Below, in pieces: positions 1,102 through 28,731 of a DNA stretch of 64,000 bases. The translations under genes and the position numbers were made by a program. The stretch spans positions 1 to 64,000 of the forward strand of contig JAZDKJ010000010.1 in NCBI GenBank assembly GCA_043803105.1, in the 5' to 3' direction. Numbering within the stretch: the first letter of the stretch is position 1; each line of letters starts with the position of its first letter. This DNA comes from Candidatus Woesearchaeota archaeon (GTDB lineage: Archaea > Nanobdellota > Nanobdellia > Woesearchaeales > JAZDKJ01). The notes beneath the pieces are model-generated. The model ran no database searches. It was not told where the DNA came from and saw only the letters and a program-made list of their open reading frames with translations.

Positions 1102-1256
1102 GCCTCGGTAGCTTAGACATCAGTGCCTCCTTTAGCACGATGAAGCAACAGGTGGAGCGTGTGGCTGTTATTCGCCATTTTGGCCGAAAAGAGACCACAA
1201 GGTCAGCAGAATACAGTAGAGGAGCTGTTTGCTGAATTCGAGTCTGCTCCGAGGCG
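1102..1256 (+). tRNA. tRNA-Asn(GTT) with three introns (15/16: 1117-1148; 37/38: 1171-1193; 53/54: 1210-1236)
   Basis: After removing three hairpin inserts bounded by BHB-like motifs: acceptor GCCTCGG/CCGAGGC, D-stem GCTT/GAGC, anticodon stem TGTGG/CCACA with loop CT-GTT-AA, T-arm AGCAG-TTCGAGT-CTGCT. Confidence 0.92.
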
Positions 1257-2039
1257 TTCCTCATTTTCCAGTTTTTCAAGCATTAACAACCTGTCCTGAA
1301 TTGTCGTACCGGGTGGTACATGCCCAATTTTTTTCCACAATTCGATTCTACTCAAGTGATTAGGATTCATAAAACCAATTGTACTTAACCATAGACTAAG
1401 CGTTTTCACTCCATTCAACTGCATGTAGTACGACGAAAGTTGAGACTTGTTTCTTTGTTGTATCCTCTGCCCGCGATGAACAGGAAAGCCTAATATTTTC
1501 AAAGTTGATGTAACGAAATCCCATAACTCTTGATTACAAGTTTGGTAATCAACAACAGGATAGTAGTTAATCAACTTATGTCTATTCTTGAAAACAACTG
1601 AGAAGTCCGTGTCTGCAAGACCTCTCAGAAATGCAATTTTTAGGTTCATCGGCGCTTTTAGGATAATTCTTGGTGGAGGACTGTGACTTTTTGATCCAAC
1701 CGGCATTCCGCAAGAAAATTGCATAAAAGAGTGGATTGCTTTTGAGTTCAAAGTAAGTTTAATGCTCCCATGACCTTCACAAATCTTCGGAGTTCGTCGA
1801 AATAGATGACGAAAAAGAGGAACTACACAGGTCTTACACCAAATAAGATCATTTATTGGATGGCCATCATATTCTATCCTATACTCAAAAGGTCTTTTAA
1901 CCAAATGCCCATCACCCATATGTATTCCCAGGAAATAGGCTAAATTGCTATCCAATTTCCCTGGAACCTTAGTAAGAGTAATTTTATCGTTCTTACTGTA
2001 ACGCACATCTCTAAGGTTTATAGGGATGATTAAATCCAT
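1203..2039 (-). CDS. Free-standing double-motif LAGLIDADG endonuclease
   Basis: Motifs LAYFLGIHMGDG and FLRGLADTDFS; no intein splicing motifs seen. The 3' end runs antisense into tRNA-Asn. Confidence 0.88.
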   Translation of the reverse strand: MDLIIPINLRDVRYSKNDKITLTKVPGKLDSNLAYFLGIHMGDGHLVKRPFEYRIEYDGHPINDLIWCKTCVVPLFRHLFRRTPKICEGHGSIKLTLNSKAIHSFMQFSCGMPVGSKSHSPPPRIILKAPMNLKIAFLRGLADTDFSVVFKNRHKLINYYPVVDYQTCNQELWDFVTSTLKILGFPVHRGQRIQQRNKSQLSSYYMQLNGVKTLSLWLSTIGFMNPNHLSRIELWKKIGHVPPGTTIQDRLLMLEKLENEERLGADSNSANSSSTVFC

Positions 2040-2079
2040 TAGAAGCCTCTGACGACACTTATTATTAAGTTCTGCGTAT

Positions 2080-2091
2080 AAATGTCCAGTG
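2080..2091 (-). promoter_or_regulatory. CACTGGACATTT upstream element, copy 1 (LAGLIDADG gene)
   Basis: Identical 12-mer also at 9169-9180 (-) and 59632-59643 (+), each about 10 nt upstream of a TATA-like box. Confidence 0.6.
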
Positions 2092-2110
2092 AAATTTTCA
2101 AAAAAAGATT

Positions 2111-2126
2111 GTCTGCTCCGAGGCGT
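2111..2126 (+). repeat. Duplicated 3' end of tRNA-Asn (16-bp direct repeat, att-like)
   Basis: GTCTGCTCCGAGGCGT at 1242-1257 and 2111-2126. Confidence 0.9.
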
Positions 2127-2141
2127 ATTTCTTGCATTACT

Positions 2142-3326
2142 CTACATATAGCTGTCAGTTTTCAATCCCTTGGTAGAAATCAAATCTATTCCCAGGTCTG
2201 AGTCATTAAATCTTTCACATATGTGCTCTATTGCATTAGATTGCAAGTACTTTATTGTTCTCTCAAGCCCGTTGTAGATTCCTGCAGGTTTTGAGTTTCC
2301 ATGCCCTTTGACAAGGTAACCGTTTATTCCAAGCAAAGGAGCTGCATTGTAGTTGTCTGGATTGAACATACTTTTTAGTTTTGTATACGTCCCTGAGAGT
2401 TTGAAGAATTCCTTTGAAAGGAAGGCAAACGTTAATCCTGCCACATCAAAAATTGCTTTTGGTTTTCTTGGGATTCTCGCAAGGATTGCCTTAGGGCTGA
2501 TTTCTGCTTGAGCAAATGCAACAAAGCTTTCCAATATCCCTTCCATCGTTTTGAGATTTGTGTTGCCTACAAAACCTTCAGCCAGTATGATGTCTGCCTT
2601 GTTTTCAAACATGCCATGTTTTCCCTCAATAAAACCTATATAATTAAGCTTGTTCTTTGATTTTTCGTTATATTTTTCAATAAGATTGGATAGTTCTGCC
2701 ACAAATTTGCTTCCTTTGTGTACCTCTTCCCCGTTGGATAATATTGCTAATCTTGGGTTTTCCTTTTTCAGTACATCTTTCGCGTATACATCAAACAGTA
2801 TGCCATAAATAAGAACCTGCTCTGGTTGTGTGTCAACAGTTGCCCCAACATCCCCGAACAATATATGCACTCCCTGTCTGGTTGGTAGTTCTGCCACAAG
2901 TGGGGGGTATTTTATTGGAACGCCCTTTATCAAACCTATTTTCTTCTTGCCATAACCTATGAGAGAACCGGTTTCTCCCATTGAGTAAGCGCAATTGATT
3001 TCTCCTCTTTTTAGATAATCAAGCATGACATGAACTGATGTTTCCTTGATTCTTTGTGTTCTGGAGCTCCTGGCGCTTCCGAGAACCTCATCAACCGAAA
3101 TTGTCCAAGCAGGACAATCGATAACTGTTATCCTCTTGGTTGGGACTTTGTGAGCTTTTAGGCCTAATGATGCCTCTGCTGATCTGCCAAAAAGGACGAA
3201 ATCAATTTTGGGATAGGATCCTTGTAATTGAAGTAAGGCCTGTGCCACTCTCTGGCTTGGAAGAGTGCCCTGATTTCTTTCTCCACCATTTATGTCGATT
3301 CCAAGGATTATTCTGTCAAGTGCCAT
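2142..3326 (-). CDS. plsX: Phosphate acyltransferase PlsX-like protein
   Basis: N-terminal IILGIDINGGE, SMGETG, DVGATVD, LSNGEEVHKG, GFIEG, GFVGNTNLKTMEG, APLLGING-VKGHG. The upstream extension in the ORF track overlaps tRNA-Ile, so the start is set at 3326. Confidence 0.85.
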   Translation of the reverse strand: MALDRIILGIDINGGERNQGTLPSQRVAQALLQLQGSYPKIDFVLFGRSAEASLGLKAHKVPTKRITVIDCPAWTISVDEVLGSARSSRTQRIKETSVHVMLDYLKRGEINCAYSMGETGSLIGYGKKKIGLIKGVPIKYPPLVAELPTRQGVHILFGDVGATVDTQPEQVLIYGILFDVYAKDVLKKENPRLAILSNGEEVHKGSKFVAELSNLIEKYNEKSKNKLNYIGFIEGKHGMFENKADIILAEGFVGNTNLKTMEGILESFVAFAQAEISPKAILARIPRKPKAIFDVAGLTFAFLSKEFFKLSGTYTKLKSMFNPDNYNAAPLLGINGYLVKGHGNSKPAGIYNGLERTIKYLQSNAIEHICERFNDSDLGIDLISTKGLKTDSYM

Positions 3327-3422
3327 TCTTTGTGAGATGACATCTGGCTTCTTAAATATTGTTGTTCCCGAGAGGACAAAAGAAAAATGTTTATAAATGG
3401 TCTGGCATTCTAATGGAGCATT

Positions 3423-3542
3423 GGGCCCGTAGCTTAGCCTGGTGTTGTGCCCGAATGATAATCGGGCGGTCCGGAGTTCAAATAGTTGGCGACGAAGTCG
3501 GCAACGACCGAAAGCGTCAGCTTGACTGTCTCCGCGGGCCCA
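3423..3542 (+). tRNA. tRNA-Ile(GAT) with a T-loop intron (59/60: 3483-3528); D-stem atypical
   Basis: Acceptor GGGCCCG/CGGGCCC-A, anticodon stem CCCGA/TCGGG with GAT, T-arm CGGAG-TTCAAAT-CTCCG after intron removal; TTTATAAA at 3390-3397. Confidence 0.8.
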
Positions 3543-3629
3543 TTTTTCTTTCATTTTTATGACTGGGGGACTCCGGTCCGCAGACTTGGAGTCGCCCTCG
3601 GGATCAAGGAACAAGACCCTTGGTGGGAA

Positions 3630-3646
3630 TCTCCGCGGGCCCATTT
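3630..3646 (+). repeat. Duplicated 3' exon of tRNA-Ile (17-bp direct repeat)
   Basis: TCTCCGCGGGCCCATTT at 3529-3545 and 3630-3646. Confidence 0.9.
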
Positions 3647-3691
3647 ATTTTCTTGGCAACCTATTTAAAGGTCTGAACCTTAGCTCTGCCC

Positions 3692-5245
3692 ATGTCTAAG
3701 TCGAGCATTGCCCAGCTTTCAAGTGATGCAGCAATAGACCTTGCTATCGACACTATCGGCAAGAAAAAGCAGGCCTTGATTTTTGTCAACACTAAGCGCT
3801 CTGCCGAGAAGGTTGCTGAAGACTTAAGCAAGAAAGTGAGGCTTGCAAGCCCTGAGTTGGACGAGCTTTCAAAAAAAGCACTCAAAGTTCTCTCAAAGCC
3901 AACAAGGCAGTGCGAGCGATTGTCAAAATGCTTGAAGAAAGGCGTTGCATTTCATCATGCTGGCCTTGCTCACCAGCAAAAAGAGCTTGTCGAGGATTCT
4001 TTCCGTTCTGGCCTGGTGAAGATTATTGCTTCCACCCCCACACTTGCACTCGGTGTCAACCTTCCTGCTTTTAGGGTCATTATGCGTGATGTCAAGCGCT
4101 ACACCCACCAGGGTTATGTTCACATTCCTGTGCTAGAATACCACCAAATGTGTGGTAGGGCAGGCCGCCCGCAGTTTGATGCTTACGGTGAGGCCATCTC
4201 CGTTGCTTCTTCAGATGATGACCGTGATGATCTTGTTGATAGGTTTATCAGGGGAGCTCCTGAGGCAATCTATTCAAAGCTTGCTGTTGAGCCTGTTCTA
4301 AGGACCTATCTTTTGTCTTTGATTTCTTCTAACTTTGTCAACACAAAGAAGAGTATTATGGATTTTTTTGCAAAGACCTTTTGGGCTTTCCAGTTCAAGG
4401 ACCTTAACCATCTGCAGAAGATTATTGAGAAGATGCTCCGCCTTCTTGAGGATTGGGAGTTTGTCCAGTCTTCTTCAAAGGATGATTTTCAGTCTGCCTC
4501 GCAAATTGCCGATGAAAGGTACAGGGCTACTGCTCTTGGCCAAAGGGTTGCTGAGCTTTACCTTGATCCCCTGACAGCTTTTAATCTCTGCAATCGCCTG
4601 AAGCGCGCAAGTATGCAAACAATCACAGCCTTTTCCTTTCTCCAGATGGTTTCCCACACCTTAGAGCTAAGGCCTCTCTTGAAAGTCAAGGCCAGAGAGT
4701 TTGAGAAGATGCAGGAGGTCCTTGCAGAGCATGATTCTGACCTTCTTGAGGACGAGCCTTCCATGTTTGAGCAGCATTATGAGGATTTCCTGAATTCTGT
4801 GAAGACCTCCTTGTTCATGCAGGATTGGATTGAGGAAAAGGACGAGGAATATTTGCTTGAGACATATGATATCCGTCCAGGAGAGATTCGTGTCAAGCTC
4901 GACCTTGCTGATTGGCTATTGTACGCTTCTTATGAGATGGGCAGGATTCTTGGCCTTCAGCCCTTATTAAAAGAGGTCGCCAGGGTTCGCATAAGGTTGC
5001 AGTATGGTGTAAAAGAAGAATTATTGCCTTTGCTAAAGCTTCGCAACATCGGCAGAGTTCGCGCAAGGATGCTCTTCAGGAACAGCATTAAGAGCATTGG
5101 TGATGTCAAGAAGGCAGAACTCGCAACCTTGACTCAGATCTTGGGAAAGCAGATTGCCCTGAGTGTGAAAGAGCAAGTCGAGAAGCCAATTGAGCCTGTC
5201 AAAGAGAATAAAAGGAAGGGCCAGATTAATCTGGAAGACTATTAA
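3692..5245 (+). CDS. hel308: Hel308/Ski2-like helicase lacking the N-terminal RecA1 (Walker A/DExH) domain
   Basis: GVAFHHAGL, STPTLALGVNLPA, QMCGRAGRP and C-terminal HhH (LRNIGRVRARMLF); no GKT or DExH motif. Confidence 0.85.
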   Translation: MSKSSIAQLSSDAAIDLAIDTIGKKKQALIFVNTKRSAEKVAEDLSKKVRLASPELDELSKKALKVLSKPTRQCERLSKCLKKGVAFHHAGLAHQQKELVEDSFRSGLVKIIASTPTLALGVNLPAFRVIMRDVKRYTHQGYVHIPVLEYHQMCGRAGRPQFDAYGEAISVASSDDDRDDLVDRFIRGAPEAIYSKLAVEPVLRTYLLSLISSNFVNTKKSIMDFFAKTFWAFQFKDLNHLQKIIEKMLRLLEDWEFVQSSSKDDFQSASQIADERYRATALGQRVAELYLDPLTAFNLCNRLKRASMQTITAFSFLQMVSHTLELRPLLKVKAREFEKMQEVLAEHDSDLLEDEPSMFEQHYEDFLNSVKTSLFMQDWIEEKDEEYLLETYDIRPGEIRVKLDLADWLLYASYEMGRILGLQPLLKEVARVRIRLQYGVKEELLPLLKLRNIGRVRARMLFRNSIKSIGDVKKAELATLTQILGKQIALSVKEQVEKPIEPVKENKRKGQINLEDY

Positions 5246-6528
5246 CGTTCTTTCATAAGCCTTCTCATTTCTTCCTGGTATTCTACGCGTTCTGTCCGTC
5301 TATAAGGTGAGGTTGCAAATTTCTTTACCTTAGCCAGATCAAGCTTTCCGTTGGTAATATATGATTGTTCTATAGGAATGCCTTCCTCAAAGCATCTTAT
5401 CACTTCAGCATAAAACCAGGCTGTTCTGATGATGCTGGTGCGTCTCCGAAGTTCATATATCATATTGTCTTCTATGAAAGGATGCGTGTTCATATAAATT
5501 ATTTCTAGCGGCGCCACAGACGCCGCCCTTCTCATCGAGCTCTCAAATTCTATTCCAGATAGGACCGGATGTGTGGCGTAGCTAATCAGGTATTTTGGTT
5601 TGTGATTACCTAGGCCATTCGAGAATATTCCATCCTTTGTTATGAGGTTGGCTGCCGCAGCCTTTGTTCCCCAGGTGTCATCAATGTCATCAAACAATCC
5701 TGCAGTCTTGCCTTCTAGTCCTTTGTAATTCTCCGAAAATGTTGGGTTGACAACCTCCACTTGGTTAGGGTCATTATGAACCCGCCTAATTTTTTCGCAA
5801 TCAATCCTGCTAACGTTGGTGTATCCGAGTTCATGCAGCATTTTGTAGAGGTCAGTCACGTGTGAGTCAGCTCCAAGGTCTGCTCTTATCAGAACAAAAT
5901 TTGCTCCATTATTGCTTAGGTCCACAAGTGAGTAGTTGACCAAATAGTCTATCAATAATGGATTGGGATTGAGGTCCACTAGCGCATCAGGCTTGCCAAA
6001 AACCTTTGCATATGATTCCACCACTCTATGGCTGTGAACATGATGGGTGAAAACCTTATTCACTCCCGCAGATTTCCATGCGATTGCCTGGGCTTCAGCG
6101 CTCTTGCCCTTTTCAGAAAATGATCTTCTCTTTTCTTCTGATGCCTCTCCGGCAATATCTTCAGGTCCCTTGTCTGCTCTGCTGAAAAACAGGTCTGGCG
6201 CCATTACATTTACAGTCTCAGCACCGTGTTCTTTTGCAGTGTATGCTGCAATAACCACCCTTCCAAGCATCCCATCTGGTTTGACATAATGTTTAGTATT
6301 TGCAGGGTTTGTTGGTACAGCAAACAGATAGACATTCTTTCCTCTCAGGTCCACCTTTACTTCAGGCCCAAATTCATCTCCGCTGAACTTGTTTGGGTAC
6401 ATTGACCGTGAAAGATCTGGCAGATGCAAGCGATAGTTTTTTCGCAAATACTCAATGCTCTTGTTGGTGAAGCTTATGGATTCTTGTGCTTGAGAAAGAG
6501 ATGCAATCACTATGTCGTTAAGACTCAT
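5242..6528 (-). CDS. prs: Ribose-phosphate pyrophosphokinase (PRPP synthetase) family protein, long divergent form
   Basis: FSGDEF, LFFSRADK, HVHS, ADLGA, FDDIDDTWGT (PRPP loop), YATHPVLSG. Confidence 0.75.
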   Translation of the reverse strand: MSLNDIVIASLSQAQESISFTNKSIEYLRKNYRLHLPDLSRSMYPNKFSGDEFGPEVKVDLRGKNVYLFAVPTNPANTKHYVKPDGMLGRVVIAAYTAKEHGAETVNVMAPDLFFSRADKGPEDIAGEASEEKRRSFSEKGKSAEAQAIAWKSAGVNKVFTHHVHSHRVVESYAKVFGKPDALVDLNPNPLLIDYLVNYSLVDLSNNGANFVLIRADLGADSHVTDLYKMLHELGYTNVSRIDCEKIRRVHNDPNQVEVVNPTFSENYKGLEGKTAGLFDDIDDTWGTKAAAANLITKDGIFSNGLGNHKPKYLISYATHPVLSGIEFESSMRRAASVAPLEIIYMNTHPFIEDNMIYELRRRTSIIRTAWFYAEVIRCFEEGIPIEQSYITNGKLDLAKVKKFATSPYRRTERVEYQEEMRRLMKER

Positions 6529-6597
6529 TATACCCCCAACCGTCGATGTCTTTTTGCCTCTTTATATGCTTTTTTGATGTCTAATATATATATTGCA

Positions 6598-8199
6598 TCA
6601 AAGCATTTCAGGACTAAAAAAAGTCCCGTCCACACAGCTCCTCTCGCCAAGCTTTGTGTAGCACCTTCCGCAAAGTCCCTCTCCGCAGCCTGTATCATGC
6701 TCAATCGAAGACAATACCCTGTTCCATCTTTCTCTTGGCAAACAATTTAACTCTATCAGAACACTCTTCCTTATCATTGGCTCCGGTCCGCAGTTTAGTA
6801 TATAGTCTGGTTGCGCCTCTTCTATTACCCTTTCAAGAGGGTCTGTTACAATGCCCCTTATTCCAATCTCCCCGTTCTGGGTTGTCAACCATACCTCGCT
6901 ACAATTCTTCATGAATTCTGTAGAATATGCCAGGTGTTGTTCATCTTTTGCTCCCAAGACAGCATATGTTTCAGGATTTCTCTTGGCAAACAAGTACAGC
7001 GCTGCTATTCCAGTTCCTCCTCCAACCAACAGTATCTTGCCATCAACCTCTGGCGTGTTTCCGTAAGGTCCTCTTATTTCAACCATGTCTCCTGCCCTAA
7101 CACTAGTCAGTGCTGCAGTGCATTTGCCTCTCTTTTGTATTAGAAGTGTCAATGGATCATCATCCATTACTGAGAATGGTTTGTCTGCCATGCCTGGCAA
7201 TCCTGCAAAAACAAATTGTCCAGGCATCGCGCTGTACGCTTTGTCAAATCCTAAGAGATTCAGGTCATCTGCCAATTGTTCGTTAACTATCACTTTTACT
7301 GTTTCATATTCCCTCATGTCGACAAGAAATTCTGAAGCATAATTTGTGCTATTTTTGCAGTCAATCAGCAGGTGATGGAAAAAGTCCTTCATGCGCTGCG
7401 TGCTCATTCCTGCCAGCCCTGTTCCTACTCCTTGAAAATCTGCCCCCGCATCCCTATATCGCATTACATCTTCAGCGCATGTTATTCCTCCATAAGCGAT
7501 TATCGGTAGCTCTGTCATGCTCCTGATTTTCTTGACTGTTCTAATCCCTACTTTGAGCAAGGGTTTTCCTGAAGAGCCGCCAACCTTGTTGGAAAGTATT
7601 GTATGGTCATTCTGGCAATACCATTTTGGTCCTGCTGTGTTTACTGCAGAGAATCCTTTAGCCCCTCCCCGTAGGCATTCCAGTACAATGTCTTCAATTT
7701 TTTCCCACGGAGGCATTTTCACGAAAACGTCTATTCCTTTGTCTGCAACATTCTTGACTATTCTCCCCACTGCCTTGGCATCATTGCAGAACAGTTGCCT
7801 CAGTTCGTAGTCGTTCGGGCAGAAGAAATTGAGCTCAACCGCATCAGCACTTGGTGCAGCCCTCTCAGCCACTTCGCTGAACTCTTGCTCTGTTCTTCCG
7901 AAAACCGATATTACCAATGCCTTGTTCTCAGGTATTCTTGCTTTTGCCAGTTGTCCTATGGTTTGCTCAATCCCTATGTTTGTGAGCCCAACAGCATTGA
8001 CTGCAGAATGTTTTCCTGTTCTTGCTATTGTTGGGTCATCGTGGCCTTTGTGAGCAAGCAGGCTTGTGCTTTTCGGGTACATTATTCCCAATTCAGGTAT
8101 TTCTGTTGCAATCCTTTCAAGTACAGGTACATTTGTTGTTACAATTCCAGGTGGTATGCAAAATGGCCCGCTAACCTCCTTTTCGAGCAGCTTATACAT
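6598..8199 (-). CDS. Dihydroorotate dehydrogenase fused to its electron-transfer subunit (PyrD-PyrK)
   Basis: NAVGLTNIG, ELNFFCPN, SAVNT, GGSSG, YGGI, then PGQF, GPYG, GGGTGIA, CGPEPM and the 2Fe-2S motif CGEGLCGRC...C. Confidence 0.88.
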   Translation of the reverse strand: MYKLLEKEVSGPFCIPPGIVTTNVPVLERIATEIPELGIMYPKSTSLLAHKGHDDPTIARTGKHSAVNAVGLTNIGIEQTIGQLAKARIPENKALVISVFGRTEQEFSEVAERAAPSADAVELNFFCPNDYELRQLFCNDAKAVGRIVKNVADKGIDVFVKMPPWEKIEDIVLECLRGGAKGFSAVNTAGPKWYCQNDHTILSNKVGGSSGKPLLKVGIRTVKKIRSMTELPIIAYGGITCAEDVMRYRDAGADFQGVGTGLAGMSTQRMKDFFHHLLIDCKNSTNYASEFLVDMREYETVKVIVNEQLADDLNLLGFDKAYSAMPGQFVFAGLPGMADKPFSVMDDDPLTLLIQKRGKCTAALTSVRAGDMVEIRGPYGNTPEVDGKILLVGGGTGIAALYLFAKRNPETYAVLGAKDEQHLAYSTEFMKNCSEVWLTTQNGEIGIRGIVTDPLERVIEEAQPDYILNCGPEPMIRKSVLIELNCLPRERWNRVLSSIEHDTGCGEGLCGRCYTKLGERSCVDGTFFSPEML

Positions 8200-9128: not shown

Positions 9129-9168
9129 GCTCCTTAATCATGATTTCTGCTTAAATAAGCTTACGCAC

Positions 9169-14675: not shown

Positions 14676-15616
14676 AAAAGCGTGCTGTCTTTTTTACTCT
14701 CCTCGCAATAATCCTTGTTGGGCTGTTTATAGCATCTTTTTCTTTCTATGTCCCATATCACGAGAGTAAGAAGACAGATGTTATTGAGGTCCGCATCAAC
14801 TCTATGAACCAGCTTTTGAGGAGTGTCAACAGTGACATGCAGCGCGCCTTGTACATCTCCAGCTTTCGCGCGATTTTCTCTCTGATACAGCACATAACCT
14901 CTGAAGGCACTTACCTGTCTGACGCTGAGCATGATTTCAAGCTGATGCTGTTGAACGGCACCATTGATCCAGGAGCTGAAGTTGTTTTTCACATGGATAA
15001 CCAAACAATCATTAACTGGACCAAGAAGATCATGCGCCTTGCTGAACAGGTGGACTTGAACCTCACCATCCGTGTTGTCAACGTGACTCTTTCCCAGTCA
15101 TCTCCCTGGACTTTGAATCCCACTATTACCATGAACATCTCTTTGACTGATAAGAAAAAAACAGCAAGTTGGCAGCAACTCTCCACAATTACTGCCTCAG
15201 TCCCTGTTGACGTCTTTGAGGAGCCTGTGTATGCAGTGATGACCAACGGCAGCGCATCAATGCTAATTGTGCGTTCAAACATTTCGGTCTGGAATATTTC
15301 TGCCTTGAAAAAGCATCTTAACCAGACCACTTTCATACAATTTACTGGTGCGCCGAGCTTTCTCCAGCGCCTTGAGGGAAATATTGGCTACTCTAGCCCT
15401 TACGGCATAGAGGCCCTGGTCAACAAGACTGAGCTTGAAAGGTTTGCTGACCTGCCAATGACTGAGCGAAGCTCTGTCGATTATCTTTATTTTGGTTCTG
15501 CTGCCCACAAGAATTACAGCATACACGAGATAACTGACCAGGGTTTTCCTGATTTTCGCCTAGATCCAGAGCATATTGCATTTTTCAACGTTGGACTGTA
15601 CAACTATACTGGCTGA
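14672..15616 (+). CDS. Minor pilin-like protein
   Basis: MKKRAVFFTLLAII leader; operonic position. Confidence 0.7.
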   Translation: MKKRAVFFTLLAIILVGLFIASFSFYVPYHESKKTDVIEVRINSMNQLLRSVNSDMQRALYISSFRAIFSLIQHITSEGTYLSDAEHDFKLMLLNGTIDPGAEVVFHMDNQTIINWTKKIMRLAEQVDLNLTIRVVNVTLSQSSPWTLNPTITMNISLTDKKKTASWQQLSTITASVPVDVFEEPVYAVMTNGSASMLIVRSNISVWNISALKKHLNQTTFIQFTGAPSFLQRLEGNIGYSSPYGIEALVNKTELERFADLPMTERSSVDYLYFGSAAHKNYSIHEITDQGFPDFRLDPEHIAFFNVGLYNYTG

Positions 15617-15644
15617 CGATGTTGCGTTGCGAGCGTAGCGAGCA

Positions 15645-15748
15645 CGTCCAACCTTGCGCTCTCAGAAAAGCAAGGCTTTTCTGTGGCGTGCCAAAAACCT
15701 TGGGTTTTTGAGCATGTTGGACGAAGGTGCGGGCTGACTTCTCAGCCC
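15645..15748. repeat. Multi-branched palindromic element (REP/MITE-like or structured RNA)
   Basis: Outer stem CGTCCAAC/GTTGGACG (15645-15652/15716-15723) encloses CAGAAAAGC-aag-GCTTTTCTG and CAAAAACC-ttg-GGTTTTTG; followed by GGGCTGA-cttc-TCAGCCC. Confidence 0.65.
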
Positions 15749-15789
15749 TGCGAAAGCTTTTTAAACCTGCATTATGTGAGAGATTCAGC

Positions 15790-21957: not shown

Positions 21958-22006
21958 TTATTTGACGATACATTAATATATTTATCAACTCAACATATCC
22001 ATTAAA

Positions 22007-22678
22007 ATGGATAAAACTATCCAAATAAGTGGATTTGTCAAAAAAGACCTTTTATTATTGTCTCATTTCCTGAAAGATCCTTCAAGAGCGTTTACAATCT
22101 CGCAGATTAAGGCTTTGTCCAGGAATAACTCTCATCATTATGTGTTTTCTGCTCTTAAGAGGTTTTGCTCGTTAGGCTTGCTCTTTGAGAGTAAGTTTGG
22201 ACAGACCAACACTTACACTCTGGATTTTCGTAATTTGAACCATTTACCAGTTTTCGCCTTTGTCGAAAGTTTGGTTGCCGAAAGCAAGAATAATATTCCT
22301 TTCAGGAACATTGAAAAAATTTCGGAAAAAATGGGCAAGTCTTTTTATTGCCTTCTTGTGTACGGATCCTATGCCGAGCAAAAGGAGAGTAAAACTTCAG
22401 ACTTGGATATCGCCTTCATAGTTCCGGACTCTGACGTTAAGAAACAGTACGAGATTGCGCTCAGAGCTGGAACCCTTATGCAGCCTGAAGTTCATGGTTT
22501 TGTGTTTAGTGAAGATGAATTTTATCAGATGCTTGTAAACGATGAGTTTAATGTGGGCAAGGAAATCATCAGGAATCATGTCATCCTTTATGGTGGCGAG
22601 CAATACTACAGATTGCTTTTCAAGGCCTTAAAACATGGATTCAAGAGTGAAAATTTATCTGACAAGGGCAAAAAGTGA
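22007..22678 (+). CDS. wHTH-minimal nucleotidyltransferase (MNT antitoxin)
   Basis: YGSYAEQKESKTSDLDI; palindrome TATCCATT-aa-AATGGATA (21996-22013) over the start codon. Confidence 0.85.
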   Translation: MDKTIQISGFVKKDLLLLSHFLKDPSRAFTISQIKALSRNNSHHYVFSALKRFCSLGLLFESKFGQTNTYTLDFRNLNHLPVFAFVESLVAESKNNIPFRNIEKISEKMGKSFYCLLVYGSYAEQKESKTSDLDIAFIVPDSDVKKQYEIALRAGTLMQPEVHGFVFSEDEFYQMLVNDEFNVGKEIIRNHVILYGGEQYYRLLFKALKHGFKSENLSDKGKK

Positions 22679-23117
22679 GATTGATTCTGCAGAACTATTG
22701 TTTACCATTTCCACAGATGACAAGCTTAAGGACCAGTTTAATCTTGAGAATAATGCAACTTTCTTCAGTAATGTTATCTCTCAAAGTTATTACTCCATCT
22801 TTTATTGTGCCAAGGCAATGCTCTTATATGCCGAAAAAGAGACAAGTCCTCCAGCAGTCCATAGAAAGACCTTAAGAGAATTCAGGAAAGCCTTTATTGA
22901 CAATGGTCTCTTGGATACCAAGCTGTTTCTTTTGTACAAGGTTATGATTGTGCGGGCAGAGGCTTTGCTGGAGATCTACAGGCAGGAAAGAACAAAGCGG
23001 AACACCTTTACTTACAACACGATTCCTCAGGCAAACTTGGATCCAGCCAAAGGGTCGATTGCAAATGCAAGAATGTTCTATAAGCACTGCAACACATTTC
23101 TTCTGAACCAAGAATAG
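22635..23117 (+). CDS. HEPN-domain protein (toxin of MNT-HEPN pair)
   Basis: YYSIFYCAKAML...H...R..F.Y; overlaps the MNT gene. Confidence 0.82.
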   Translation: MDSRVKIYLTRAKSEIDSAELLFTISTDDKLKDQFNLENNATFFSNVISQSYYSIFYCAKAMLLYAEKETSPPAVHRKTLREFRKAFIDNGLLDTKLFLLYKVMIVRAEALLEIYRQERTKRNTFTYNTIPQANLDPAKGSIANARMFYKHCNTFLLNQE

Positions 23118-23241
23118 CCAAGATTAACCAGTCATATTATGGCTATATTAGTATACTAAATCGTAAACTTTATATATAGGTTATACGGTAAGTAGTTACA
23201 AGTTCATAATTTAAAGAGAGTAAAAAAAGAGGTGAGAGTAA

Positions 23242-23679
23242 ATGCAAAAGAGAGCTCAAGCAGCAATGGAATTTTTGATGACTTATGGCTGGGCTATTCT
23301 TGTCGTTTTGGCAGCAATAGGAGCATTAGCTTATTTTGGTGTTTTAAGCCCAGACAGGTTTTTGCCAGAGAAATGCACTTTACCAAGCGGTGTTGCATGT
23401 TTGGACTTTACCGCGTCCTCAACGCAGGTAGTGATGCGAATACAGAATAGTGGTGGTTTTGATATGACTGGTGTAAATGTTAGGCTCTCAAATGCAACTG
23501 ATACAGTATTATGTACCCCCAGCGCAACCACCCTTTCAGATGGTCAGCAGCAAACCTTTACATGCACGTCAAACTTCGCGGCTGGAAAGTTGAAGAGCGT
23601 TATTAACATGACCTATACTAACCAGCAAACAAGCATGAGCCATGTAAAGTCCGGTGAACTCATCGCAAAGATAGGTTAA
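23242..23679 (+). CDS. Type IV pilin (major-type), copy 2
   Basis: KRAQAAMEFLMTYGWAILVVLAAIGALAYFGV; RBS GAGGTGA. Confidence 0.88.
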   Translation: MQKRAQAAMEFLMTYGWAILVVLAAIGALAYFGVLSPDRFLPEKCTLPSGVACLDFTASSTQVVMRIQNSGGFDMTGVNVRLSNATDTVLCTPSATTLSDGQQQTFTCTSNFAAGKLKSVINMTYTNQQTSMSHVKSGELIAKIG

Positions 23680-23695
23680 TTTTTTTCTTTTTTTT

Positions 23696-25510
23696 ATGTT
23701 ATCCAAGTTTCTGCTAATTTTGCCAATCCTTCTAATCCCTTCTGTCTTTGCAGCTTTTACTGAGGTCTCTCATGATGCCTGGCATTATGCGAATGAGTCT
23801 TTTAAGGTTGGCACTATGGAAGTCAAGCTCGGTGCCAGTTCATCCCAGGAGACTATCTCTTTGAGCGCACAGGACAAGACCTACCTGATAGCAAACAAGA
23901 CTTGTGAAGAGACTTCACAATACTTTTTTTGCGTTGACAACACTCAGCAAGGCGGTTTTGATTATTATTGGCGCGTATACAAGCTCAAGTACAAGGTCAG
24001 GATCCTCCAGAAGCTTGCGAAGCTTGAGCTCTCCAGGACTGTTTCAAGGGCTGAGTTCTTTTCTGGCCAAGACGCAGAGGTTTCATTATCTTTCAAGAAT
24101 TCAGGCAGCTTTGCTGCAACAAGCCTCCATGTTGAGGACAACATGCCAGGTTTCAATGTTATCCAGGCAACAACTTGCAAGTCTGCTGGCCAGTCTGTTG
24201 TCTGGGACGGCTCACTTCTTCCAGAGCAGGAAATAGATTGTTCTTATAAGATTCGTGCTGTAGAGAGCAGCTCTCTTAAGTCAAAGGCTGTTGCCACTTA
24301 TTTTAATGGCAAAGCCTCAGTCACCTCTTCTTCAGCAGAGCTTATCTTAAAATCCTATGCGAACGAGCTTTCCTTAACCGCTCCTTCAAGCCTCGACCTT
24401 CAGGTTGGCTCCTCAAAGATTGTGCAGATAATGCTTAACAACACTGTCCCCAAGGACATCACTGTTAAGTCTTTGACTGCCACAATTCCTTACGGTATTT
24501 CAGTCACAAAGTTCCTTTCCTGGGACAGGGTCCATGATTACAAGTTCGTTTTTTCCGGCACTATTCCTGCCAGGTCAGTAAAGTACCTGAATCTTACTTT
24601 TGTTGCTGAACAGCAAAGGCCTATGACTCTAGGCCTAAACCTTCAGTTCGTGGTTGACACCATATCTAGGTCTGCCTCAAGGAATGTTTCCATTATTTCC
24701 TCTATTCCCAATCTCACAATCCTGTATCAGTTTCCTCTGTTGTTCCAGGTCAACAAGTCAGCGCATCTGTTGATTAGGTTGACTAACCCAAGCAATTTGC
24801 AGGATTTTAAGGCTGTTGATGCTAAAGTGCTTATTCCCTGCCTGAACATTTCAATTTCTAAGAAATACAATGAGATTCAGAAAGAACTGACTGTAGACAT
24901 TCTTGATACAAGCATTATGATTCCTTCTGCCAACGCATGTTCTGTTCAGACTACTGTTTCCTATGAGACCTCTTTCGGTCAGTTGATGAAGATTGTAAAG
25001 CAGTCAAATTTCTCTGTTGCTGCAGCGCCACAAGCTCCTAATCTGTCAGCTACTCCAATAAATTCCAGCCAAATTATTGCTCCTTCAACTGCACAGACTT
25101 CCAATGCCAAGAAAGGCTTTAATTTCAACTATGTCTTCGCTGGCTTTGGTTTCTTGGCTTTTGTCCTGGTTATTGTGTGGCTGCGCAAGAGGTCTCACAA
25201 AGTCATCTCCAAGGAAGAAGCTGCCTTAGTGACAAAGGAATTGAAACCTGAGGCTCAGACTCGTCCTCAAACGATTGCTTCCGAACAGCCTAAAAAGAAA
25301 GGCAAAAAACAGCCAAAGGTCGAACATAAGCGTGCTAAGCCAAAGGTTGTTGAGTCACCGAACCCAACGGTTATTGAACCAAAGACTGCTGATATTACTG
25401 AAACTTCTGAGCCAGCTGAACCAAAAATAGAACTTGAAAAGCCAAAAAAACCTACTGAAGTCACAAAACCGCAAAAGAATCCAAAAAAGCAGCCAAGCTT
25501 TAGGTTCTAG
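23696..25510 (+). CDS. Secreted Ig-like/DUF11-type surface protein with C-terminal TM anchor and Pro/Lys-rich tail
   Basis: Signal peptide, beta-rich repeats (VSLSFKNSG...VEDNMP), TM segment YVFAGFGFLAFVLVIVWL. Confidence 0.65.
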   Translation: MLSKFLLILPILLIPSVFAAFTEVSHDAWHYANESFKVGTMEVKLGASSSQETISLSAQDKTYLIANKTCEETSQYFFCVDNTQQGGFDYYWRVYKLKYKVRILQKLAKLELSRTVSRAEFFSGQDAEVSLSFKNSGSFAATSLHVEDNMPGFNVIQATTCKSAGQSVVWDGSLLPEQEIDCSYKIRAVESSSLKSKAVATYFNGKASVTSSSAELILKSYANELSLTAPSSLDLQVGSSKIVQIMLNNTVPKDITVKSLTATIPYGISVTKFLSWDRVHDYKFVFSGTIPARSVKYLNLTFVAEQQRPMTLGLNLQFVVDTISRSASRNVSIISSIPNLTILYQFPLLFQVNKSAHLLIRLTNPSNLQDFKAVDAKVLIPCLNISISKKYNEIQKELTVDILDTSIMIPSANACSVQTTVSYETSFGQLMKIVKQSNFSVAAAPQAPNLSATPINSSQIIAPSTAQTSNAKKGFNFNYVFAGFGFLAFVLVIVWLRKRSHKVISKEEAALVTKELKPEAQTRPQTIASEQPKKKGKKQPKVEHKRAKPKVVESPNPTVIEPKTADITETSEPAEPKIELEKPKKPTEVTKPQKNPKKQPSFRF

Positions 25511-25524
25511 CATAACAAAAATGT

Positions 25525-25580
25525 AAAATTTCGACCTAAAGGTCAGGGTCTTCAACCCTGCTAAATTCTGTCGAAATTTT
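25525..25580. repeat. Palindromic element resembling an IS200/IS605-type end remnant
   Basis: AAAATTTCGAC/GTCGAAATTTT inverted repeat with internal GACC-taaa-GGTC and CAGGGT-cttca-ACCCTG hairpins. Confidence 0.45.
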
Positions 25581-25617
25581 CCATAAATTTTTATATCTAG
25601 TATCTGTACTCACAAGC

Positions 25618-26454
25618 ATGAGGCTTCCTGTTGTTGCAGGTCAGTTCTATGCTGAAGATAATCTTGACGAGCAGGTCAAAGAGTGTTTTTTGCACCAGCT
25701 CGGTCCTGGCTCTCTTCCTGTAGCCAGAGTTTCTGGTTTTGTTAAAGGCATAATTTCCCCGCATGCAGGCTTTATGTTCTCTGGTCCTTGCGCTGCCTTT
25801 GGTTTTAAGGAGATTGCTGAATCAGTTAAGCCTGATGTCTTCCTTGTGCTTGGCCTTAGCCATTCAGGCCTCCCCACATGCTTTTCTGCGGATGATTGGC
25901 GCACTCCTCTAGGTGTTGTGAAGAACGACAAGGATTTTGTCAACTTTCTTTCTGAAAAGACTGGTGTGCCGATTAACGAGCGAGCTCACGCCACTGAGCA
26001 CTCTATTGAGGTTCAGCTTCCCTTCCTGCAGTTTTGTGTGAAAAAGCCTATTTTCGCACCATTGATGGTCTCGCACGATCTGAACCCTCATGAATTGGCT
26101 TCATCCTTGAAAAAAGCCATAGCAGATAGCAAAGAGAGAGTCTGCATCATTGCCTCCAGTGACTTTACACATTATGGCATCAACTATGGTTTCATACCGT
26201 TTGCTTCTAACAAGAAGGAGAATCTCTACAAGCTCGATAAGGGTGCGATTGAATGCATCCTTCAGTTGAAGTCAGGCAAGTTCCTTGATTATGTCGATAA
26301 TACCAGGGCCACAATTTGCGGCTCTTTGCCTATTGCTGTCTTGCTTGATCTTGTCCAGGCAGAAAAAGCAGAGCTCTTGCAGTATTATACCTCAGGCGAC
26401 ATCAATAATGATTACAGCAGTGCTGTCGGTTACGCTTCTATTTCTTTCAGATAA
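25618..26454 (+). CDS. MEMO1-family protein (AmmeMemoRadiSam system protein B)
   Basis: RLPVVAGQFY, PHAG, EHSIEVQLPFLQ, SSDFTHYG, TICG, VGYAS. Confidence 0.92.
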   Translation: MRLPVVAGQFYAEDNLDEQVKECFLHQLGPGSLPVARVSGFVKGIISPHAGFMFSGPCAAFGFKEIAESVKPDVFLVLGLSHSGLPTCFSADDWRTPLGVVKNDKDFVNFLSEKTGVPINERAHATEHSIEVQLPFLQFCVKKPIFAPLMVSHDLNPHELASSLKKAIADSKERVCIIASSDFTHYGINYGFIPFASNKKENLYKLDKGAIECILQLKSGKFLDYVDNTRATICGSLPIAVLLDLVQAEKAELLQYYTSGDINNDYSSAVGYASISFR

Positions 26455-27310
26455 AGTAAAGTATGGAAAGTAGTGTTGCAATCCACACAATTATTCCGAT
26501 TGTGAGTCTCTTGTCTTTGTAGAAGTTTTCTGGAGACCTTGCTATTACGTTTCCTGTCTCTATCAGGTAAAGATATCTGAATATTACGTATAATGCTATT
26601 GGCAGTGTATATGCGAGCCTTTCGTTTTGTGTTAGGAAGCTGTAGAAAGAATACGAGGTGACAAGGAGCGTTGTGCTGATTAGTGTCAATGCCCCTGTTA
26701 CTTTCTTGCTGTATGCCTCCATAACCTGTTTGTGCAGGCTTGCCTTGTTGCCAAGTAGCATAATGTCTGCTTCTCTTTTTCCTGCTGAAAGGAATAGGGA
26801 GAGGAAGAAGGGGCATAGTATCAACCATGGACTGACCCATATGTAGGGTTTGCCATTGCTGCTGATAATGTACGAGCCTGACACAGCCCTAAGCACAAAA
26901 AGGCTTCCAAGAGTCATTATGTCAAGGAATGCTTCTTTTCTTAGCAGGAATGTGTACAGCTGCCCTAAGGCAAACAATCCTGCAAGGAAGTATAGGAAGC
27001 TTCGCGATAAAGCGATTGATAAGATTGACGCTACGATTAATAACAGGATCACCGCAACTATTCCTTGCCATCCTTTTACCTTCCCGCTGGCTATCGGCCT
27101 CATCCTTTTCTCAGGATGGTGCATGTCTGCCTTCCTGTCAGCTATATCATTTATTATATAGTTCGCAGAAGATACAAAGCATAGTGCAAAGAATCCTATC
27201 AAAGTGAGCCAAAGTGCATGAGTATTGCCGAGTTGCTGCCCGAATATTATCGGCAAAAAGATTACTAGGTTCTTGTACCACTGCTTGACGCGAAGTAGCT
27301 TTGCTATCAT
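26447..27310 (-). CDS. UbiA-family prenyl/phosphoribosyltransferase (decaprenyl-phosphate PRTase-like)
   Basis: RVKQWYKN, YIINDIADRKADMHHPEKRMRPIASG, multiple TM helices. Confidence 0.9.
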   Translation of the reverse strand: MIAKLLRVKQWYKNLVIFLPIIFGQQLGNTHALWLTLIGFFALCFVSSANYIINDIADRKADMHHPEKRMRPIASGKVKGWQGIVAVILLLIVASILSIALSRSFLYFLAGLFALGQLYTFLLRKEAFLDIMTLGSLFVLRAVSGSYIISSNGKPYIWVSPWLILCPFFLSLFLSAGKREADIMLLGNKASLHKQVMEAYSKKVTGALTLISTTLLVTSYSFYSFLTQNERLAYTLPIALYVIFRYLYLIETGNVIARSPENFYKDKRLTIGIIVWIATLLSILYFI

Positions 27311-27371
27311 GCTCTTGAGCACTCTCACAGTTTATATAAATTTTTGGGAAAGTTTTTGGTGCTGAAGAAGT

Positions 27372-27857
27372 TTATCCTTTTGCAGGCTTGATCTGGTTTT
27401 CTGCCTCTTTTTTTAGCGTTGACAAGTACAAAGTTGCCTGGACCTCTATCTCTTTCCAGTCTTCGTAACTGACCATTTCACCATAATAGTTTGCCCCATG
27501 TCTCTTTGTCCTGATTTTCTCAAAAAACCCCCAGTCAAGATCCAATTCAGGATACTTCGCAAGCAGGGCAGAAAAGAGACACTGATGGTTTTCAGAATAG
27601 ACACCTTTTATTCGCAGTAACACTTCGGCTACCATTCTTAATGCTTCGTAATGCAGAGTGTACACATTCATCCATTCTTTTGCTTTTATGCTGATTGACT
27701 TTTTGATTATGTTGGCAGAGCTTACGTTTGTGTTCGCATTTTCTAGGAGTGTCTTGATTTTGTCAATGTTTGTTTCAGTTAGGTCTTTTATCAAACCCTT
27801 TGTTAAGCAGCTATCGTAGACCTCCTCAAATCCCCTGAACTTAGGCACAAATCTCAA
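27372..27857 (-). CDS. HEPN-like protein
   Basis: YEALR...NHQCLF...RTKRHGANYYG; downstream of an MNT gene. Confidence 0.72.
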   Translation of the reverse strand: MRFVPKFRGFEEVYDSCLTKGLIKDLTETNIDKIKTLLENANTNVSSANIIKKSISIKAKEWMNVYTLHYEALRMVAEVLLRIKGVYSENHQCLFSALLAKYPELDLDWGFFEKIRTKRHGANYYGEMVSYEDWKEIEVQATLYLSTLKKEAENQIKPAKG

Positions 27858-28383
27858 CCCCCAAGTTAGCTAATGAGCCTTTGATGTAATTACCTGCTAT
27901 GATGTACGGCAGCAGCTTTTTCATCTTCTGCAGCTCTTCATTATTTCTGGCATTATGAACCTGTATCTCCCTGCCCAGTCTTGATTCATACATCCCTCTT
28001 TCAAATTCATCGCCCTTCCCATAGATGAAGATGTCTACGTCACTATCCGCGTACCAGTCTTCTCTGGCAAAACTTCCAAAGAGGATTACAACCTTTGCGT
28101 TCTTAAGTCTTGCAAGATGGTCGAATAATCCGCTCTTTTGCAGGGTCTGCAATGCAAATTGTCTTTTTTTGCTTCGAAACGTCAAGCTGCTGAAATTATG
28201 CACATAGTAAGGCATCCTTCCTTTGGGTTTGACCCTCTTGATGATACCTTCCTTCTGAAAGGCTATGAGCCATTTTGCTAGCTGCGGCCTGCCTATCTGT
28301 GCCTGCTCTAGTAATTCTTCAAAATGCCATTGCTTTGGATAGTTGAAGAATAGCTCCAAAACCTTGTCTTCCTTGCTTCTCAT
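27841..28383 (-). CDS. wHTH-minimal nucleotidyltransferase (MNT)
   Basis: LFGSFAREDWYADSDVDIF; palindrome TTAGTTA...TAACTAA (28385-28407) upstream. Confidence 0.85.
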   Translation of the reverse strand: MRSKEDKVLELFFNYPKQWHFEELLEQAQIGRPQLAKWLIAFQKEGIIKRVKPKGRMPYYVHNFSSLTFRSKKRQFALQTLQKSGLFDHLARLKNAKVVILFGSFAREDWYADSDVDIFIYGKGDEFERGMYESRLGREIQVHNARNNEELQKMKKLLPYIIAGNYIKGSLANLGVEICA

Positions 28384-28512
28384 TTTAGTTACGATAGATA
28401 TAACTAATATTTAAAGTTTTCCTTGATGTAAATGTTCAACTGATGGCCAATGCTCAGTGCACAAAAAAAATCATAAGACTTTTAAACGATTTATCCTTTC
28501 TCTACCCTATGC

Positions 28513-28576
28513 GCCGAGGTGGCACTGACCCAGCCTTTTGCACAGGCAAAAGCCTGGGGAAAAACGTGCTCCTGGT
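28513..28576 (+). pseudogene. Truncated duplicate of the tRNA-Ser 5' end with a D-loop intron-like hairpin
   Basis: CGCCGAGGTGGCAC at 28512-28525 equals 28583-28596. It is followed by hairpin CCCAG-CCTTTTGC...GCAAAAG-CCTGGG, then GTGC (pairs with GCAC) and CCTGGT. TATA-like TTTTAAA at 28480-28486. Confidence 0.7.
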
Positions 28577-28583
28577 CGCACAC

Positions 28584-28731
28584 GCCGAGGTGGCACAACC
28601 TGGTACTGCGCGAGATTGCTAGGTACATCTGAGTGCTTATGATCACTCCGCAGATATCTCGTGTCCGAAAGGATTTCTGGGTTCAAAAAGCGTCTGCGCA
28701 AAACAGGCGCTGGAAAGTCCCAGCCTCGGCG
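28584..28731 (+). tRNA. tRNA-Ser(GCT) with two introns (37/38: 28622-28655; 59/60: 28688-28717)
   Basis: Acceptor GCCGAGG/CCTCGGC-G, anticodon stem CGAGA/TCTCG with TT-GCT-AA, long variable arm TCC-GAAA-GGA, T-arm CTGGG-TTCAAAT-CCCAG; BHB-like boundaries. Confidence 0.92.

Follow-up and report, generated by a model that had tools for sequence, protein, structure and literature searches.

Duplicated tRNA gene ends as probable scars of DNA insertion in a Woesearchaeota-type archaeon

The integration of mobile elements into tRNA genes, accompanied by direct repeats, is textbook knowledge. Free-standing homing endonuclease genes of phages adjoin their target genes, casposons and the integration of spacers into clustered regularly interspaced short palindromic repeats (CRISPR) duplicate long stretches of their target at tRNA 3' ends or at repeats, and sequence-related introns at different tRNA positions were reportedly described in Thermoproteales by Fujishima et al. 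in 2010 as 'intron transposition'. A stranded tRNA fragment is known from one locus of Caldiarchaeum subterraneum, where a 5' tRNA fragment lies upstream of a live gene with an extra intron, the insert carries a recombinase, intron gain by recombination with the attachment (att) site of a mobile element is proposed, and the idea that introns protect att sites is noted (Sugahara et al. 2012, PMC3293823). Heavy tRNA disruption and incomplete tRNA sets have already been noted for DPANN lineages (PMC5829648), and a 2026 preprint on Asgard archaea states that the route of intron arrival 'remains open', with no general route found. The stretch analysed here (C10:1-64000, 64,000 nt, referred to as the window; C numbers denote contigs C1-C13 of the same genome) belongs to a small DPANN archaeon of Woesearchaeota type in which nearly all tRNA genes have bulge-helix-bulge (BHB) introns, and in its tRNA-Asn, tRNA-Ile and tRNA-Ser genes one terminus is present twice.

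As the initial annotation of the window had claimed, these three tRNA genes carry non-canonical introns and a duplicated terminus, with repeats of 16 nt at tRNA-Asn, 17 nt (exact) at tRNA-Ile and 14 nt at the 5' end of tRNA-Ser, and its view of the displaced copies as scars, left at tRNA gene ends by events at the DNA level, is shared here. We consider it probable that the duplicated termini are direct repeats around DNA inserted at tRNA gene ends, and thus insertion scars. Three kinds of insert are observed in the window, namely a 35.9-kb island at the 3' end of tRNA-Ser, an 853-bp LAGLIDADG cassette at the 3' end of tRNA-Asn, and hairpin elements of 57-84 nt at the 3' end of tRNA-Ile and the 5' end of tRNA-Ser; the hairpin elements belong, as judged from their sequences, to families that are also found as T-loop introns, as intergenic copies and at protein-gene 3' ends. 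The stranded-fragment design is the same as in Caldiarchaeum, where one locus with a 1.8-kb insert is concerned (PMC3293823), whereas here at least 16 tRNA genes are affected, the inserts are mostly gene-less and 46-157 nt long, the spacers are related to introns, and the element is also present at protein-gene ends.

The layout is constant in every case, with the live gene complete on the inner side and a partial old copy on the original flank, which is the promoter side for 5' copies and the downstream side for 3' copies. Exact repeats of at least 11 nt were counted within 2.5 kb of 31 tRNA genes, an incomplete tRNA set made up of 28 genes from a custom finder, tRNA-Asn and two genes from ARAGORN, with inverted repeats as the control, and this census returned 26 direct against 8 inverted repeats. 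Terminal direct repeats of at least 12 nt numbered 20 and occurred on 16 of the 31 genes, compared with a single terminal inverted repeat of that length, and all 20 obey the same orientation rule, with 5' copies upstream and 3' copies downstream; two extra cases with mismatches were observed at Pro(UGG) and Thr(CGU). Across the whole genome, exact repeats of at least 13 nt spaced 30-260 nt apart amounted to 87 direct and 10 inverted, where about 5 exact 13-mers at that spacing are expected by chance, and by our own reading about 17 of the 87 lie at tRNA ends, tRNA genes making up well under 1% of the DNA. By hand numbering, the 5' blocks end at positions 7-20 (D loop) and the 3' blocks start at positions 47-63 (T loop or T stem). 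In Ser, Tyr and Pro(CGG), a TATA-like box was seen by eye 25-33 nt upstream of the outer 5' copy and none in the spacer, Gly(CCC) being the exception with a TATA-like box within its spacer. A tandem duplication of leader plus exon is ruled out, as the two copies are preceded by different sequences. Two displaced copies, at Pro(CGG) and Thr(CGU), have a different character: the Pro(CGG) fossil, outside the window, retains positions 1-20, then an intron at 20/21 that differs from the one carried by the live gene at the same site, then positions 21-28, and behind Thr(CGU) lies a fragment of a different allele, with 5 mismatches in 24 nt and an intact T stem. The scars record intron turnover, and they have no demonstrated role in causing it.

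The tRNA-Ile(GAU) gene (3423-3542, plus strand) was returned by the custom finder and by ARAGORN on the spliced sequence, and it has a predicted 46-nt T-loop intron (3483-3528) at 59/60 that shares 87.5% identity over 40 nt with the T-loop intron of tRNA-Gly(CCC). The inner repeat copy (3529-3550, plus strand) runs from U60 to the discriminator and a T-rich trailer, and the displaced 3' end (3630-3651, plus strand) shows AA before the block, as in an intron-less T loop; the two copies lie 101 nt apart, with 17 nt exact and 20 of 22 positions (91%) identical, and the exact identity begins at U60, with which the 3' exon opens. The 84 nt between the exact 17-nt blocks fold at -31.9 kcal/mol and hold a miniature element, termed Y (3551-3629, plus strand), with a T-rich start, a hairpin and a conserved tail that includes a 20-mer at 3600-3619. 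In relatives of this element the duplicated block starts from A58 of intron-less T loops, and in one subfamily it always does so. Since the displaced Ile copy has AA plus block as in the intron-less T loops of these related insertions, the copy is probably a fossil of an intron-less T loop, and the 59/60 intron with its Gly(CCC) relative was probably gained afterwards in the live copy. The initial annotation had noted that the Ile duplication starts exactly at the 59/60 splice site and had named boundaries random relative to intron positions as a refutation; the A58 start of the related insertions speaks against a splice-site link at Ile, and boundaries at splice sites are not supported in general: a repeat boundary coincides with an intron site of the live gene only in Ile and Pro(CGG).

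The D stem of tRNA-Ile(GAU) (3432-3449) is weak, with 2 of 4 pairs (only G10-U25 and C11-G24) and two U-U oppositions, and in genome G013 the D stem of the counterpart is normal. The custom finder, which misses about one third of the expected set, returned no second GAU gene, and a DNA query for an orthologous tRNA-Ile(GAU) in the same-genus genome G001 did not find one, its match being a UAU-anticodon gene. At locus L039 (G013:C75, about 1383-1520), tRNA-Ile(GAU) shows a 5' duplication of positions 1-18 around a 99-nt hairpin spacer, and since G013 belongs to another family of the order, 5' scars extend beyond this genus.

The Y element is conserved in other genomes. A segment of 25 nt from the Ile spacer (3597-3621) recurs with 100% identity at several loci of G001, the only same-genus genome, where one aligned coding stretch shows just 67% identity. 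Allowing at most one mismatch, the Y 20-mer was detected in 4 of 151 genomes of the order, with 1, 4, 2 and 2 copies, and in 33 metagenome contigs, and 0 matches were obtained in viral contigs. All readable Y loci exhibit a constant layout that runs from a complete gene end through the T-rich start, the hairpin and the conserved tail to a second gene end with the original flank; the tail ends in a resemblance to the T-stem strand directly before the block, and the T-rich start is like tRNA trailers. A block of at least 10 nt beside the motif is repeated upstream in 17 of 35 Y occurrences, mostly at tRNA 3' ends; an eighteenth match of the script is a tandem-copy artefact and was excluded, and several other occurrences lie at contig ends. 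The tRNA beside the element was confirmed by Rfam at loci L044 and L068. One Y variant, with a 1-base difference, is present at two different tRNAs (L044 and L066), each with the block of its own tRNA, and two unrelated Y variants are present at the same tRNA with identical block limits (L041 and L068). Because near-identical elements at different tRNAs each have their own block, the duplicated block of the miniature elements was, on this sequence comparison, probably copied from the target. The hairpin stems are wholly different between copies and the fold is kept, with a median z of -3.1 and 22 of 30 distinct sequences below -2. No Rfam family matched the Y element, and no protein family recurs beside Y elements apart from synteny between related contigs. 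In G001, a small zinc-ribbon open reading frame (ORF) has its last 35 nt in triplicate with two Y-type elements between the copies, the distal copy is diverged and runs into the apparent original stop, and the orthologue in the genome studied here has no element; the end of a second G001 insertion lies inside a stop codon. The Y element therefore duplicates protein-gene 3' ends as well and is not tRNA-specific. The shared block limits at L041 and L068, together with the repeated 35-nt limits in the G001 array, indicate a process that is site-specific at both edges.

Small spacers without any gene and with hairpin folds were observed at Ile, at the 5' end of Ser and at a dozen sites elsewhere (46-157 nt), and they are built of recurring modules. 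In Arg(UCG), Arg(GCG) and Ser(CGA), one module comes after position 14. A second comes after the outer block of Tyr, Met, Ala(GGC), Pro(UGG) and Pro(CGG), and the T-loop introns of His and Gln begin with it as well. The T-loop introns of Phe, Pro(CGG), Glu(CUC) and Glu(UUC) begin with the 'D' module, which is also present in the Ser spacer of the window and, in reverse orientation, in the spacers of Tyr, Met, Ala(CGC) and Thr. A BLAST comparison of 40 introns and spacers returned matches of 15-50 nt with 88-100% identity in both orientations, such as the His intron and the Tyr spacer (21 nt, 100%), positions 1-33 of the Pro(CGG) intron and the reversed Ala(CGC) spacer (94%), and the Glu(UUC) intron and the reversed Tyr spacer (91% over 32 nt). 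In the window, an intergenic copy of hairpin modules (the B module and others) lies at 15600-15760 on the minus strand with no tRNA nearby. These relationships suggest a common insertion route for introns and spacers, although none of the 47 genuine introns shows a target-site duplication beyond a slide of 0-3 nt, and for this reason a common route is not established. The ORFs in the larger spacers (Asn, the second Ser unit, Gln, Glu and Pro) have no homology to one another.

The tRNA-Asn(GUU) gene (1102-1256, plus strand) has three predicted introns, in the D loop (about 1117-1148), at 37/38 (1171-1193) and in the T arm (about 1210-1236), with boundaries exact to within 1 nt, and the spliced sequence is called as tRNA-Asn(gtt) by ARAGORN; the BHB scores are 3/3/3 for the 37/38 intron and a relaxed 4/0/1 for the T-arm intron, and a TATA-like box was seen by eye about 27-34 nt upstream. 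The inner repeat copy (1242-1257, plus strand) covers tRNA positions 59-73 plus 1 nt, and the displaced 3' end (2111-2126, plus strand) is an exact 16-nt repeat at a spacing of 869 nt that starts at position 59, within the T loop. Between the repeats lie 853 bp with one ORF, on the strand opposite to the tRNA, which is a LAGLIDADG homing-endonuclease-like gene (1203-2039, minus strand, 278 aa) with two LAGLIDADG-type motifs in its translation; it is convergent with tRNA-Asn, its last codons overlap the tRNA 3' end, and it is free-standing, antisense and downstream of the tRNA, not inside an intron or intein. Its Pfam LAGLIDADG_3 match (E 0.0055, 17.4 bits) is under the cut-off of 22.5, its best solved relative is the putative homing endonuclease PDB 2dch_X (E 0.0035), and its 20 homologues include some with PF14528 or PF05204 and two named Candidatus Woesearchaeota. 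Relatives are present in 28 of 101 genomes of the order, with three copies in the genome studied here. Ten LAGLIDADG loci were inspected, 2 of this genome and 8 in relatives, and in 4 of the 8 relatives' loci (L018, L019, L022 and L024) ARAGORN tRNA genes lie beside the ORF, the endonuclease gene and the nearest tRNA being convergent by their coordinates, as at tRNA-Asn. The two other homologues in this genome are located at C6:32774-33547, which has an internal TAA and adjoins an intron-bearing tRNA-Ala called by ARAGORN, and at C10:101435-102133. Upstream of tRNA-Asn, an exact 18-nt AT-rich direct repeat (884-901 and 979-996, 95 nt apart) precedes a stretch (997-1075) that looks like the beginning of Y-type elements.

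The tRNA-Ser(GCU) gene (28584-28731, plus strand), detected by the custom finder and ARAGORN, has predicted introns at 28622-28655 (37/38) and 28688-28717 (T loop, 59/60), and it is flanked by repeats at both ends. At the 5' end, the displaced outer copy (28512-28525, plus strand; positions -1 to 13) and the inner copy (28583-28596) form an exact 14-nt repeat 71 nt apart, with a TATA-like TTTAAA seen by eye about 26-33 nt upstream of the outer copy; the spacer between them (28526-28582, plus strand) is a 57-nt hairpin of the 'D' family that folds at -23.1 kcal/mol and contains a 15-nt exact match to the tRNA-Glu(CUC) intron. At the 3' end, an attL-like repeat (28721-28737, plus strand) has partners past the window end at contig positions 64631-64647, which gives 17-nt repeats 35.9 kb apart, and 65627-65641. 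A tyrosine integrase gene (28787-30073, plus strand; Pfam Phage_integrase 3.5e-17) begins about 55 nt downstream of tRNA-Ser on the same strand; it is one of 4 PF00589 matches in the genome, and 2 of the 3 others lie close to class II tRNA genes or candidates. The integrated island spans 28738-64000 in the window and ends at contig position 64630, with a guanine-plus-cytosine (GC) content of 0.34-0.39 at 42-60 kb against about 0.43-0.45 elsewhere, and its Pfam-assigned cargo includes a subtilase and, at 30670-60774, a dense set of defence-type genes: an AbiJ-like N-terminal domain, an AAA/STAND ATPase, a UvrD-PD-(D/E)XK nuclease, an MZB-domain DEAD helicase and a complete MmeI-like restriction-modification enzyme. 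The insert thus has the marks of an integrase-type island, which are a border recombinase, repeats at both borders, and foreign composition and cargo, and it is an ordinary integrase-mediated defence island with a classical att duplication and an intact integrase. In this it is alike to pNOB8-type integrative elements as presented in PMC3293823, with an intact integrase on the same strand, border repeats and foreign cargo. A second unit of about 1 kb lies behind the island and is bounded by the third Ser repeat, whose position suggests tandem accretion.

For the miniature elements, a template-switch repair route is an inferred model that fits the anatomy of the scars. A break would arise in the T loop or D loop of a tRNA gene, the tRNA-adjacent LAGLIDADG enzymes being candidate break makers; repair synthesis would copy the gene end from the sister chromosome and switch template through an element copy, and the strand would then anneal back at conserved T-loop or T-stem bases. 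An element-borne att site served by an integrase in trans is possible, and a classical transposase is unlikely since the block length of 12-37 nt is too variable. We further propose, tentatively and with more doubt than confidence, that hairpin spacers and T-loop introns alike represent a single, so far undescribed class of miniature mobile DNA element of Woesearchaeota-like archaea, which would land in the T loop, the D loop or gene 3' ends and survive either by re-copying 12-37 bp of target, leaving a scar, or by BHB splicing, as an intron, with LAGLIDADG enzymes supplying the breaks. Several points weigh against insertion as the explanation of the duplicated termini. The miniature elements are tied to no enzyme: neither Cas1 (PF01867) nor a reverse transcriptase (PF00078) was found in the genome, which is rated 96.5% complete, TnpB is represented there only by a match below the cut-off, and the block lengths do not suit a classical transposase. 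An origin from IS200/IS605 or repetitive extragenic palindromic (REP) elements was rejected, the end hairpin motif of the sole Y1_Tnp gene, with 3 occurrences in the genome, being unrelated to the spacer modules. The identical block limits in independent insertions suit an element-borne att site as well, the genuine introns lack the target duplication of the scars, the displaced copies of Thr(CGU) and Pro(CGG) are diverged alleles that fit allele replacement better than simple insertion, and the structures are those of a 13-contig assembly. The IS200-like Y1 transposase gene itself (C6:210483-210827) lies between matching hairpins that are unrelated to the tRNA spacers.

The initial annotation had read the three loci as a dedicated tRNA exon/intron replacement system. 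An endonuclease break in a tRNA gene would be repaired from a foreign or variant allele, one-sided homology would join the complete gene beside the old half, and the old half with its intron stub would stay behind as a scar, the process driving intron gain and loss. This agrees with the LAGLIDADG gene abutting tRNA-Asn, where the displaced copy starts in the T loop, with the homologous endonuclease genes beside tRNA genes in half of the relatives' loci, with the different intron in the Pro(CGG) fossil and the different allele after Thr(CGU), and with outer 5' blocks that continue into sequence from the families to which intron 5' ends belong. We nevertheless regard it as unlikely, since the same miniature element duplicates protein-gene 3' ends without introns or a second allele, the block boundaries are mostly off the intron sites of live genes, and cleavage of tRNA genes by the endonuclease is putative; moreover, the spacers of Tyr and Met are homologous (88% over a 50-nt alignment, and over most of their length by eye) despite different block limits (1-16 against -8 to 7), so that the spacer looks like one unit and not like an intron stub plus donor flank. 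Parts of that annotation are borne out: the displaced copies abut intron-like hairpin sequence, the spacers sharing stretches of 15-37 nt at 88-100% identity with genuine T-loop introns; an endonuclease or integrase is linked to the loci, with the integrase at Ser and the LAGLIDADG gene at Asn; and the genome-wide count of tRNA-end duplications that it had proposed gives terminal direct repeats on more than half of the genes in the census. The overwriting of tRNA halves by alleles with different introns fits the Pro(CGG) fossil with its other intron and does not fit the Ile copy, which looks like an intron-less fossil. The dedicated system is not upheld, as the inserts are of unlike kinds (the 36-kb island, the endonuclease cassette and the miniature elements), nor is its specificity for tRNA genes, given the protein-gene ends. 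That annotation was also unaware of any earlier description as a system; intron gain with a stranded tRNA fragment via a mobile element was proposed before, for one locus (PMC3293823).

Another explanation takes the outer copy as a functional exon, with the spacer and inner copy removed as one BHB intron, or with the copies serving as alternative exons. For 7 duplications the finder does give alternative cloverleafs that include the outer copy, outer 5' copies have TATA-like boxes upstream, and by eye the Ile spacer has an end capable of pairing with the T loop, like intron 3' ends. The removal of spacer and inner copy as an intron is ruled out by the BHB-compatible junctions, of which 15 in 236 were counted against 77 in 1416 shifted controls, with no excess, and the explanation as a whole is very improbable: 5' duplications would need a self-complementary central helix, RNase P RNA is present for the removal of long leaders, the ORF-end case is unable to form a BHB motif by hand inspection, and the Ile and Val spacers start with T runs right after the inner copy, which we take to be terminator-like. 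Least credible of all is an assembly artefact in which strain variants of a metagenome were collapsed into false tandems. The genome does consist of 13 contigs and is probably metagenome-derived; against this, the same architecture is present in 3 other genomes and in contigs of many independent metagenome records, the orientation rule is obeyed by every terminal repeat, and blocks of 12-20 nt are expected to fall below common assembler word lengths. Insertion at tRNA gene ends, our preferred reading, is compatible with the constant layout, the cross-genome copies and the target-specific blocks.

Further likenesses and differences were observed with respect to the other systems named at the outset. 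As in the intron transposition of Thermoproteales, introns are shared between tRNAs here, in Ile and Gly(CCC) and, through the D module, in Glu, Pro and Phe, whereas here modules are also found outside introns, in both orientations and with target duplications, which points to movement at the DNA level. The gene-beside-target setting is the same as for the free-standing homing endonucleases of phages, where the host copy could be shielded by an intron in the target; the difference is that an archaeal LAGLIDADG family is concerned here, known from sequence, whose best solved relative, 2dch, is a candidate ribosomal-RNA-intron enzyme. With casposons and CRISPR spacer integration the scars share long duplications, a preference for tRNA 3' ends, block-insert-block arrays and, in G001, a degenerate oldest block, whereas here no Cas1 was found, the blocks measure 12-37 nt, and the inserts are conserved hairpin elements and not captured spacers.

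The genome comprises 1.56 Mb in 13 contigs with about 43% GC, and its tRNA genes are largely missed by standard tools. In the 64-kb window, ARAGORN returned 0 tRNA genes and Rfam 0 tRNAs at the gathering score, with none at E<=10 within 1-32 kb; in the whole genome, ARAGORN returned 4 tRNA genes, or 9 if one intron was permitted, and Rfam 6 tRNAs above the cut-off. A custom finder was therefore used, in which acceptor-stem pairs were combined with a T arm holding at most one insert, the D and anticodon arms were threaded, and each insert was given a BHB test, with ARAGORN run on each candidate for confirmation after splicing by coordinates. It returned 28 distinct tRNA genes with 47 predicted introns, only 2 genes being intron-less; the part of the expected set that it misses, about one third, includes Cys, several Thr, Leu and Arg, and the initiator, and tRNA-Asn was dropped by the scored run and spliced by hand. 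The commonest insert is in the T loop at 59/60, and its 3' end pairs with the T loop by eye. After removal of 3, 1 and 2 BHB introns, respectively, tRNA-Asn, tRNA-Ile and tRNA-Ser of the window become normal cloverleafs, and they are not split or permuted tRNA genes, the live genes all being complete and collinear without the outer copy. The genome encodes the splicing endonuclease EndA (PF01974 match, 96.8 bits, C4:37141-37398) and an archaeal RNase P RNA. The sampled order spans more than 130 families with genome sizes of 0.6-2.7 Mb, and the tRNAs detectable by Rfam range from 5 to 42 per genome among 31 genomes of the order. The tRNA annotation of such genomes is badly incomplete, with standard finders giving 4-9 genes here at 96.5% completeness.

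Several features of individual tRNA genes were recorded in addition. The two intron-less genes, Ala(CGC) and Thr(CGU) (C6:303770-303841 and C12:123849-123921), have unusual T loops, and a displaced 3' fragment lies behind each; both may be incoming alleles. The T-loop introns of tRNA-Phe, tRNA-Pro and two tRNA-Glu genes (C12:181546-181638, C6:403688-403763, C8:113592-113687 and C8:132806-132899), which are single-copy essential tRNAs, open with 5-7 T on the sense strand, and T runs of 5-7 are expected to halt archaeal RNA polymerase. The canonical introns of tRNA-Trp and tRNA-Met (C10:102959-103036 and C8:119571-119623) contain paired GATGA-like boxes, presumably a resemblance only to intron-borne box C/D guide RNAs. 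At the Ile locus, a 500-aa ORF (2142-3644, minus strand) crosses tRNA-Ile, with a Pfam PlsX/FA_synthesis match from residue 114, and the true start of this PlsX-like gene is probably near 3302; the protein was found in none of the 30 relatives searched and its best outside match is bacterial with 31% identity, which suggests, at the level of sequence, horizontal acquisition, and synteny at the locus is thereby unusable. A direct repeat at 6729/6977 falls in coding sequence and is unrelated.

In the titles and abstracts listed by a full-text literature search, no miniature elements that duplicate tRNA ends are described. The density of the scars, with half of the tRNA genes affected, the gene-less elements common to scars and introns, their conservation across genomes and their action on protein-gene ends look new. 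The same hairpin elements serve as spliceable T-loop introns, lie as inserts between duplicated tRNA ends and, as a third setting, are found at protein-gene ends, and the Y element is conserved base for base over families of genomes and many environmental contigs, so that a DNA-level mobile-element origin of these introns becomes directly testable. If spacers and introns do form one class of mobile element, the terminal duplications would be snapshots of the DNA-level route by which tRNA introns arrive.

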